From a virus, in IMG/VR virus record IMGVR_UViG_3300027754_000067, positions 1 through 64,000 of that record: 64,000 nucleotides of DNA. One strand, written 5' to 3'. This document shows, in pieces, positions 41,089 to 41,642 of this stretch. The position numbers were made by a program, and so were the translations under genes. The notes below the pieces were generated by a model. It searched no databases and was not told the origin of the DNA. It worked only from the letters and a program-made list of their open reading frames with translations. Positions within the stretch are counted from its first letter, which is position 1. Every line of letters begins with the position of its first letter.

Positions 41089-41349
41089 CAAACACCATAC
41101 CAAGGCAAGGGTTCCAATCCAACGGAACCCTTGCTCTGGTATCCCTCTCTAATATGCCTCTCTCTGGCATCAGGAACGCCCAACAGAGCCGTTAAATCCT
41201 TTCAACGGACAATCTACCGTTAGGGAAATGAGAGCCCAAGAAACGCTGCAAATCTGTCAATAGGAATAGCAGGGCAAACACCTTAAAATTAATCCTTTGA
41301 CAATCTAACAGGAATCCAGTAAGATCAAAACAGATCAAAGAGAGCCTAG

Positions 41350-41376
41350 ATGAACAAAAGCCGAGACGGCCCCTAA
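41350..41376 (+). CDS. Micro-ORF MNKSRDGP
   Basis: Own promoter (41297-41325), purine-rich leader, ATG...TAA. Confidence 0.55.
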   Translation: MNKSRDGP

Positions 41377-41474
41377 TAAAATCCTTTGCAAACCTCTGGA
41401 GTGCAGACCTCAATTAAATGCCTTGACTCTTCAATCAGAATCCAGTAAGATCAGAACATAACAAAGGAACCTAG

Positions 41475-41501
41475 ATGCAAAAGATCCGAGACGGTCCCTA
41501 A
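41475..41501 (+). CDS. Micro-ORF MQKIRDGP
   Basis: Own promoter (41423-41451), AAGGA RBS. Confidence 0.6.
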   Translation: MQKIRDGP

Positions 41502-41612
41502 TAAAACTCTGTGCAAACTACACGGGTGCAAACCTCAATCAATGCCTTGACTTCTCATTCAGAATCCAGTAAGATCAGATCACAAAGCAGATAACTAAAA
41601 GGAACCAACTAG

Positions 41613-41642
41613 ATGCAAAAGATCCGAGACGGTCCTATCTAA
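41613..41642 (+). CDS. Micro-ORF MQKIRDGPI
   Basis: Own promoter (41547-41575), AAGGA RBS. Confidence 0.6.
   Translation: MQKIRDGPI

Follow-up and report, generated by a model that had tools for sequence, protein, structure and literature searches.

Tandem promoter-led minigenes encoding RDGP peptides in a phage early region: candidate stall-type units upstream of a tRNA-Leu gene

The stretch of DNA analyzed here (hereafter, the window) covers the initial 64 kb of one 86,542-bp phage contig, 39 % G+C (IMG/VR record IMGVR_UViG_3300027754_000067). At positions 41297-41642 it raises the question of why a phage should carry three consecutive promoters, each followed by little more than an open reading frame (ORF) of eight or nine codons whose product contains the sequence Arg-Asp-Gly-Pro (RDGP). 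Comparison with strain-level contigs from two samples, X3 and X4, and with one diverged relative, the metagenomic locus L037, shows that M-(N/Q)-K-(S/I)-R-D-G-P is conserved at the peptide level, and that the locus has been reshuffled at its repeated promoters, every version seen keeping intact ORFs. As to function, we tentatively read the array, by analogy and with a confidence that stays well short of even, as a set of translated, dosage-amplified stall-type minigenes nearest to the CreT 'proline-codon toxin' RNAs.

Three promoter units in the early region

An earlier note on this DNA, made from the sequence alone, had described three promoter plus micro-ORF units of about 125 bp, and we found both the units and their translations as it gave them. 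Each unit consists of TTGAC-N17-TAAGAT, a short purine-rich leader and the 8-9-codon ORF. Direct-repeat families with spacings of 126/124 and 125/138 nt (periods of 124-138 nt) run through the array, which is situated in the early region of the phage, flanked by small early genes and a tRNA gene. The pseudoknot and tRNA-Leu that the earlier note had placed directly downstream are likewise there. The features are as follows (the two units of L037 are called A and B):

41297..41325, plus strand: promoter 1, TTGACA-N17-TAAGAT, with a transcription start inferred at about 41332
41332..41349, plus strand: leader 1, with a weak Shine-Dalgarno (SD)-like GAGAG; 4 of 24 positions differ from L037 unit A
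41350..41376, plus strand: minigene 1, MNKSRDGP-stop ('N type'); the L037 orthologue is MNKSRDGPE-stop
41387..41412, plus strand: tail 1, a fragment of two pentapeptide-repeat units, apparently a scrap of DNA; absent from L037 unit A
41423..41451, plus strand: promoter 2, TTGAC-N17-TAAGAT pattern
41475..41501, plus strand: minigene 2, MQKIRDGP-stop ('Q type'); the whole unit is missing in some strains
41512..41537, plus strand: tail 2, a pentapeptide-repeat-derived fragment; variable between strains, with the X3/X4 differences clustering at 41516-41524
41547..41575, plus strand: promoter 3, TTGAC-N17-TAAGAT pattern
41582..41612, plus strand: leader 3, with AAGGA; 13 nt longer than leader 2
41613..41642, plus strand: minigene 3, MQKIRDGPI-stop; the L037 orthologue is MQKIRDGPI-stop; unchanged in the X3/X4 contigs
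41667..41695, plus strand: pseudoknot-type motif (ATACC-GGG-GAGCG-CAT-GGTAT-AAA-CGCTC), which ends many early genes and here ends the array
41709..41797, plus strand: tRNA-Leu(TAA) (RF00005, 50.4 bits)

The promoters belong to a larger set. About 70 plus-strand promoters of the form TTGAC-N16-18-TANNN(T/C), with conserved upstream boxes, occupy positions 1-44.5 kb, and the stricter pattern TTGACN{16,18}TAAGAT matches seven times in the window against 0.19 expected, a number reached in none of 100 shuffles. Five promoter-like sites are listed between 40700 and 42200, three of which are those of the array. In most of them the -10 box and the ATG are exactly 6 nt apart, making for leaderless one-gene units, and it is from this fixed distance that transcription starts were inferred. 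Applied to the array (start 7 nt behind the -10 box), it yields leaders of 18, 17 and 31 nt. They are similar to those of the genuine SD-led genes of the phage, a minority of units clustering at about 40-42 kb that have 20-40-nt leaders and an AAGGA- or GGAG-type box 9-12 nt before the ATG. The start signals of the minigenes are an AUG and, 7-13 nt upstream of it, AAGGA (ORF2 and ORF3) or GAGAG (ORF1); CTAG directly precedes the ATG of all three minigenes of the window.

From promoter 1 up to the tRNA, no terminator-like site or terminator-like hairpin was found; transcription begun at the upstream promoters should therefore pass through the later units, the pseudoknot motif and tRNA-Leu. No hairpin of their own is predicted for units 1 and 2, and all units could share the pseudoknot motif behind unit 3. 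A structured small RNA was rejected as the identity of the units, whose RNAs fold no better than shuffled controls (z of -1.82 to +0.90) and are without an Rfam family: an Rfam scan of 39000-44000 passed only the tRNA, the three other matches having E values above 4 and mapping outside the array. Along the same lines, the hairpin that the earlier note had seen around CCGAGACGG reduces to a 3-4-bp stem with a 3-nt loop. The enzyme gene nearest to the array, an amidoligase gene starting at 44443, is 2.8 kb away.

Conservation of the reading frame

L037 was recovered by a metagenome scan whose query, a 26-nt piece of the adjacent tRNA, carries no bias towards retention of the array. It is the sole true relative among the 55 loci found, the other 54 sharing the tRNA alone. 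The locus is 5.2 kb long, is 85-90 % identical to the window over 38.8-44.9 kb, and contains two units, one of the N type (MNKSRDGPE-stop) and one of the Q type (MQKIRDGPI-stop), followed by the same pseudoknot motif and tRNA. Upstream of the tRNA, an M..R.GP ORF was present in none of the 13 loci inspected out of the 55; IMG/VR scans with two array patterns returned no match, and the phage collection yielded tRNA matches only (12 records). The single match of a genome-contig pattern scan (L056) was a chance match within a GC-rich gene and was discarded.

Over codons 1-8 of the two orthologous pairs, three of 48 positions differ (AAC>AAT, CCC>CCG and CAA>CAG), all of them synonymous third positions, against 24 of 100 positions, gaps included, in the promoter spacers and leaders (Fisher p = 0.011). 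Depending on transition bias, three random substitutions would all be synonymous with a probability of 0.01-0.03. The minigenes have diverged synonymously (3 of 16 codons) to the same degree as nine neighboring genes (132 of 843 codons, alongside 68 with non-synonymous differences); the ORFs have, therefore, not simply escaped mutation. The paralogous comparison runs in parallel. Between the N and Q types, both of which are present in both lineages, the leaders align with 12 identical, 12 different and 13 gapped columns, and codons 5-8 are identical at 10 of 12 positions. The two differences are the silent GGC/GGT and CCC/CCT changes that the earlier note had reported and that the sequence bears out. 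R-D-G-P itself is present in all five aligned copies, three from the window and two from L037. The earlier note had proposed that relatives keeping the nucleotides while losing the frame would speak against a coding function; L037 instead keeps the start, the frame and K-x-R-D-G-P, with three of three substitutions synonymous, and this conservation supports the notion of dedicated, amplified mini-genes whose frame matters. Small as the numbers are, the substitution pattern appears to be that of a translated gene under purifying selection rather than that of a DNA or RNA motif.

The alternative at the nucleotide level would have the invariant CCGAGACGG(Y)CC act as a protein- or RNA-binding site in DNA or RNA, with the ORF untranslated. 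It draws on the identity of this 9-mer, minor codons CGA and GAC included, in five of five copies. The variation that does occur, however, affects third codon positions, its rate being similar to that in the neighboring genes, and the ATG and frame are kept while the preceding bases change (CTAGATG vs GATTATG). No stable structure is predicted, and elsewhere in the genome the 9-mer is found only within gene 15735 and once on the minus strand (43361), which is not the distribution of a general operator. We regard such a site as highly improbable.

Peptide-level conservation and dosage amplification are also what leads one to consider the free 8-9-residue peptide as the product, which would either inhibit the ribosome or a host enzyme or serve as a signal upon its release at lysis. 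Very small functional products have precedents in the 7-residue precursor of microcin C and in the chloramphenicol-leader penta- and octapeptides that inhibit peptidyl transferase. The C-terminus of the putative peptide is not fixed, however. Three of the five aligned copies carry one more codon after the proline, Ile in window unit 3 and L037 unit B and Glu in L037 unit A, where the TAA stop of minigene 1 has become GAA; the other copies end at the proline. Positions 2 and 4, moreover, differ by type, and the peptide has neither a signal sequence nor an adjacent processing or modifying gene. A free peptide is, in our estimation, improbable. The free variation after Pro argues not only against a free peptide with a defined C-terminus but also against the slowed termination at Pro-stop to which the earlier note had appealed, the stop being no fixed feature of the array; the succession of a stop, Ile or Glu at this position would better fit a stall occurring before the proline is incorporated.

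Rearrangement at the repeated promoters

Strain-level views of the locus were provided by Logan contigs from samples X3 and X4, which represent other lake strains; the X2 contigs did not assemble the array. An X3 contig joins 41396 to 41525, resulting in a two-unit array in which neither ORF is altered. Along 41448-41698, one X4 contig displays 11 differences, all of them in the two tails and none in an ORF or in promoter 3, and a second X4 contig carries changes at 41478, 41480, 41483 and 41485 that turn codons 2-4 of ORF2 exactly into the N type. Across strains and relative, the unit copy number is 2 or 3. A second rearrangement is delimited by the following feature:

41273..41290, plus strand: 18-nt direct repeat before promoter 1; a second copy at 40772-40789 is 100 % identical, and the two bound a block of about 484 bp

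The block (40788-41272) contains a promoter (40797), a gene of 79 amino acids (40849-41088) and a hairpin with a 19-bp stem (41097-41142). It is absent from L037 and from the X3 and X4 contigs, the joints running from 40787/40789 to 41273 in X4 and X3, and its loss looks like promoter-flank recombination shuffling early modules. In T4-type phages, the mobile promoter cassettes known as PeSL shuffle early genes. The likeness lies in the repeated early promoters with conserved flanks that serve as recombination points, which would explain the two- and three-unit forms and the 484-bp indel; it concerns the rearrangement of the array, not the function of the minigenes. One X3 contig further shows a strain-specific insertion or replacement at 41798-41840, where the 41 nt that separate the tRNA from the following promoter give way to 565 different nucleotides.

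The tails, 26 nt each behind ORF1 and ORF2, match DNA with a 15-nt period from the nine pentapeptide-repeat genes of the phage. The plus strand has 74 occurrences of a two-repeat pattern, 69 of them within these nine genes, three in the run past the TGA of gene 22631 and two as the array tails; it gave no match in shuffles. Missing from L037 and variable between strains, the tails of units 1 and 2 are, on sequence grounds, recombination scraps of pentapeptide-repeat genes. The minigenes themselves could not be traced to that source: a (frameshifted) pentapeptide-repeat gene start, ATGAAGA(C/A)GATCACCGA(G/A)ACGG, to which the ORF bears a likeness, was rejected as their origin, the best local scores not exceeding those of shuffled queries (the fraction of shuffles scoring at least as well was 0.74 for unit 1 and 0.13 for units 2 and 3). 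Frameshifting or read-through into the repeat-like tail was rejected too, the tail being absent in L037 and the next promoter following at once. The nine paralogous genes lie at 5396, 10994, 13945, 15722, 21251, 22631, 27417, 29137 and 32152, and most start with MKKIT(A/E)TELK. That at 22631 has an in-frame TGA behind which the repeats continue, making it a pseudogene or a read-through candidate.

Such plasticity invites the view that the array is a stack of strong promoters, arisen by promoter-mediated recombination, that drive the pseudoknot and tRNA-Leu(UAA), the ORFs being incidental passengers. In line with it are the 70 or so promoters of this kind with their conserved upstream boxes, the indels, unit 2 and the 40788-41272 block, whose borders coincide with such repeats, the variable copy number, and the pentapeptide-repeat scraps, which show that the site collects recombination debris. 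What it leaves unexplained is that three of three orthologous and two of two paralogous (codons 5-8) differences are synonymous despite diverging leaders and tails, and that the start codon and frame have survived every rearrangement seen. We consider it an unlikely account of the array.

The DNA is that of a phage and has genes for a DnaE-like polymerase, homing endonucleases and an amidoligase. No close cultured phage was found: the DnaE-like polymerase was not above about 28 % identity to any of 1395 matching phage records, and a search for it in IMG/VR gave no relative. Parts of 38000-45000 occur in public sequencing runs (20 of the 24 rows listed, from 17 studies), nearly all labeled as freshwater or lake; one of the rows may correspond to the source sample. 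A scan of 20 large proteins identified the DnaE-like polymerase (beside a homing endonuclease), the amidoligase, a GMP-reductase/IMPDH-family protein, a TnsA-like/NUMOD3 endonuclease, LRV/HEAT repeats and a weak TonB_C match. None of these 20 proteins, among them those of 46-64 kb and of L057 (64-84 kb), could be assigned to a capsid, portal or terminase family, and the 86.5-kb contig may therefore cover only part of a larger phage genome. Its G+C content is 41.9 % in 1-45 kb and 35.7 % beyond.

The downstream tRNA and a possible stalling function

The constant neighbor of the array is tRNA-Leu(TAA), with which it is probably co-transcribed. In one metatranscriptome data set (X15), contigs cover the tRNA and 41814-42100, and on the array only a 51-nt promoter look-alike from another unit. 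The codon usage of the phage gives this tRNA potential significance: TTA accounts for 2 % of Leu codons in 68 promoter-led early genes vs 36 % in 12 large late ORFs, the corresponding figures for TTG being 15 % and 18 %. The gene for tRNA-Leu(UAA) sits in the early region. The TTA split and the early tRNA together are suggestive of a bldA-like translational gate for late genes; if the array acts in cis, it may at least in part be an expression cassette of the tRNA gating late translation. The other real tRNA of the window, Leu-CAA at 27269, displays the same succession of ORF stop, pseudoknot motif (27215-27258) and tRNA.

A pseudoknot-type motif (..GGGGAGCGCAT..AACGCTCA) thus lies about 10-12 nt upstream of both real tRNA genes (27215-27258 and 41667-41695). 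The motif, of which a repeat lies at 40739-40763, is retained in L037; the Rfam scan of 39000-44000 gave no match to it. The third tRNA-Leu(TAA) called by ARAGORN, at 51133-51214, sits within a 293-aa ORF (51095-51976) of AT-rich coding sequence and is probably a false call. Behind the tRNA of the array, a 17-nt trailer (41801-41817) is the perfect reverse complement of the anticodon arm (41737-41753). The trailer hairpin of L037 retains the stem, but its loop has one substitution and an extra base, so that the full antisense match is not conserved; the trailer may merely be a hairpin with a similar stem.

These observations bear on whether the minigenes act in cis, as leader peptides in which pausing at RDG|P would set transcription, or RNA survival, into the pseudoknot and tRNA-Leu(UAA). 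This could proceed through ribosome-RNA polymerase coupling and Rho, or through 5'-end protection, and would result in a timer for a tRNA needed by late genes. In the window and in L037 alike the array abuts the pseudoknot and tRNA, and between promoter 3 and the tRNA we found neither a terminator-like site nor a consensus promoter belonging to the latter. The rarity of TTA in early and its frequency in late genes implies that the tRNA level should matter for late expression, and the tRNA at 27269 likewise follows a translated ORF and a pseudoknot, at about 65 nt. Stalling at proline motifs is reported to uncouple translation from transcription (PMC5021804). A cis-acting leader, however, would require one unit only, and two ancient unit types, each bearing its promoter, have been kept in both lineages; units 1 and 2 are 250-350 nt away from the tRNA and separated from it by further promoters. 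Structure prediction gave no alternative RNA folds between which a ribosome could toggle, and the coordinates suggest that a ribosome halted on ORF3 would reach to about 10-20 nt short of the pseudoknot. We therefore hold a cis-acting leader to be doubtful. Attenuation of the tRNA through Leu codons was rejected outright, since none of the ORFs contains a Leu codon.

The maintenance of two ancient promoter-bearing unit types and the variable copy number modestly favor dosage-dependent action in trans over a cis switch, and bring us back to the reading of the array as stall-type minigenes. According to this proposal, each unit would combine a strong sigma-70-type early promoter, a 17-31-nt SD-type leader and a real, translated ORF of 8-9 codons. 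Transcripts from all promoters would continue through the later units, giving rise to an abundant early RNA carrying one to three stall sites. The weakest step is the presumed action in trans, through engaged ribosomes or peptidyl-tRNA, as in the CreT proline-codon minigene toxin; it would damp translation during take-over, at a dose set by copy number.

The C-terminal core lends itself to this interpretation. The likeness to the RAGP motif of SecM noted earlier is a reasonable one: Fujiwara et al. picked RDGP as a RAPP-like query motif from conserved C-termini of upstream ORFs (uORFs) (PMC10987492), the Ala-to-Asp change (RDPP) is partly permissive in ApdA/ApdP and RAGP is functional in several contexts (PMC12992588), and a minimal RxPP motif is reported to be sufficient (PMC10951233). 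In RAGP/RAPP-type arrest, transfer to Pro-tRNA is blocked once R-A-(G/P) occupies the P site (PMC10951233, PMC12992588). Known RAPP-like arrest peptides (SecM RAGP, ApdA/ApdP RAPP, ApcA RAPG, YwcI RAGP and the RQH uORFs) share the core R-x-(G/P)-P, and the residues after Pro are described as irrelevant (PMC10987492, PMC12992588, PMC10951233). The five array copies, with R-D-G-P, have the Arg-(small residue)-(Pro/Gly)-Pro core, RDGP belonging to it by motif listing. As described in the same sources, however, these peptides run to tens to more than 100 residues, have a tunnel segment and usually a localization signal, and act in cis on sec/yidC. The minigenes have only seven residues before Pro, with M-x-K-x (four residues) preceding R-D-G in place of an N-terminal region. 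They come in multiple units and are too short to accommodate a signal sequence, and what follows each of them is not a uORF target but another promoter unit or the pseudoknot and tRNA-Leu.

CreT, from the type I-F CreTA system of Pseudomonas aeruginosa, is the nearest functional analogue for a stall minigene acting in trans. It is described as a growth-arresting (bacteriostatic) RNA toxin whose 15-nt SD-led mini-ORF ends in Pro-Pro-stop; it works by having these codons translated and reduces translation in vitro (bioRxiv 10.64898/2026.06.02.729485). Action in trans is, therefore, within the reach of very short proline-ending ORFs. Both CreT and the units consist of a small RNA with an SD-led, proline-ending mini-ORF as its sole content, efficient start signals and few codons. 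CreT differs in having two consecutive Pro codons before the stop, in needing a GC-rich stabilizing hairpin, and in being encoded beside CRISPR-Cas and repressed by the CreA guide. The array, in contrast, has 8-9 codons, a single Pro after R-D-G, no fixed stop and two or three promoter-bearing copies, and lies in a phage early region. The two consecutive critical codons of CreT-type RNAs (Pro-Pro, AGA-AGA or AUA-AUA) have no equivalent in it, the proline following a glycine and CGA occurring singly. The haloarchaeal CreT RNAs are natural 4-6-codon mini-ORFs that need efficient initiation and are toxic through their translation, by sequestering tRNA (PMC8501985); their toxicity depends on a pair of consecutive rare codons (AGA or AUA), whereas the array has one minor CGA and its conserved feature is the peptide.

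The bar minigenes of phage lambda, with which the earlier note had compared the array, are two-codon ORFs (AUG-AUA-stop) whose effect requires weak Pth and a rare tRNA. The array has no AUA, no run of rare codons and ORFs of 8-9 codons. Common to bar and to synthetic minigenes of 2-8 codons are the SD-led start and, for bar, the phage origin; it is their translation rather than their product that acts, via peptidyl-tRNA drop-off and tRNA sequestration (PMC2490762). In that work, carried out in E. coli systems, the effect declines from 2-3 codons to nearly nil at 8, and drop-off of the bar type is not supported for the array. As for the trapping of SD-initiating ribosomes to the benefit of leaderless phage mRNAs, which the earlier note had raised, the analysis turned up evidence in neither direction. 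Overall, the array belongs to none of the classes compared and is a variant of stall peptides and minigene RNAs.

Several points weigh against stall-type minigenes. The spacing from SD to ATG varies (approximately 7, 10 and 13 nt), with GAGAG alone in unit 1, and unit 2 is dispensable in nature, being absent from L037 and from the X3 contig. The comparison comprises one diverged relative and two strain-level data sets, and the selection test three substitutions, plus two to three paralogue differences. CGA and GAC are invariant in five of five copies although they are minor early-gene codons (14 % and 29 %, respectively), which leaves room for a nucleotide-level constraint on CCGAGACGG. No experimental test of RDGP came up in the studies consulted, most natural RAPP-like sequences examined in the PURE system failed to arrest efficiently (PMC10987492), known arrest peptides need an N-terminal tunnel segment (PMC12992588) where the minigenes offer seven residues before Pro, and minigene effects fade by 8 codons in E. 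coli (PMC2490762). A single Pro stands where CreT requires Pro-Pro, and an effect in trans would also hit the translation of the phage itself.

A literature search, from whose coverage most subscription journals were absent, returned no description of phage-encoded tandem stall-type minigenes; to our knowledge, gene callers never report ORFs as short as 8-9 codons. A bolder view, which we deem improbable as it stands, would make such arrays a distinct and recurrent phage take-over device. Abundant early RNAs would serve solely to lock ribosomes (or peptidyl-tRNA or elongation factors) on a 7-residue chain ending in R-D-G with Pro in the A site. The dose would be set by copy number, and the device may be coupled to the split between leaderless, TTA-free early genes and TTA-rich late genes gated by tRNA-Leu(UAA). 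Were this the case, hardly any tunnel segment would be required for arrest by a RAPP-like core.

Should the RDGP minigenes indeed bring ribosomes to a stall, they would represent a phage counterpart of the bacterial CreT minigene toxins, in which host translation is manipulated by an RNA of less than 100 nt rather than by a protein. They would also be the shortest natural RAPP-type arrest unit known, with a bearing on how much nascent chain is needed beyond the four-residue core. Finally, their position before tRNA-Leu(UAA), in a genome that avoids TTA in its early genes and depends on it in its late ones, would provide a testable model of a translational early-to-late timer.

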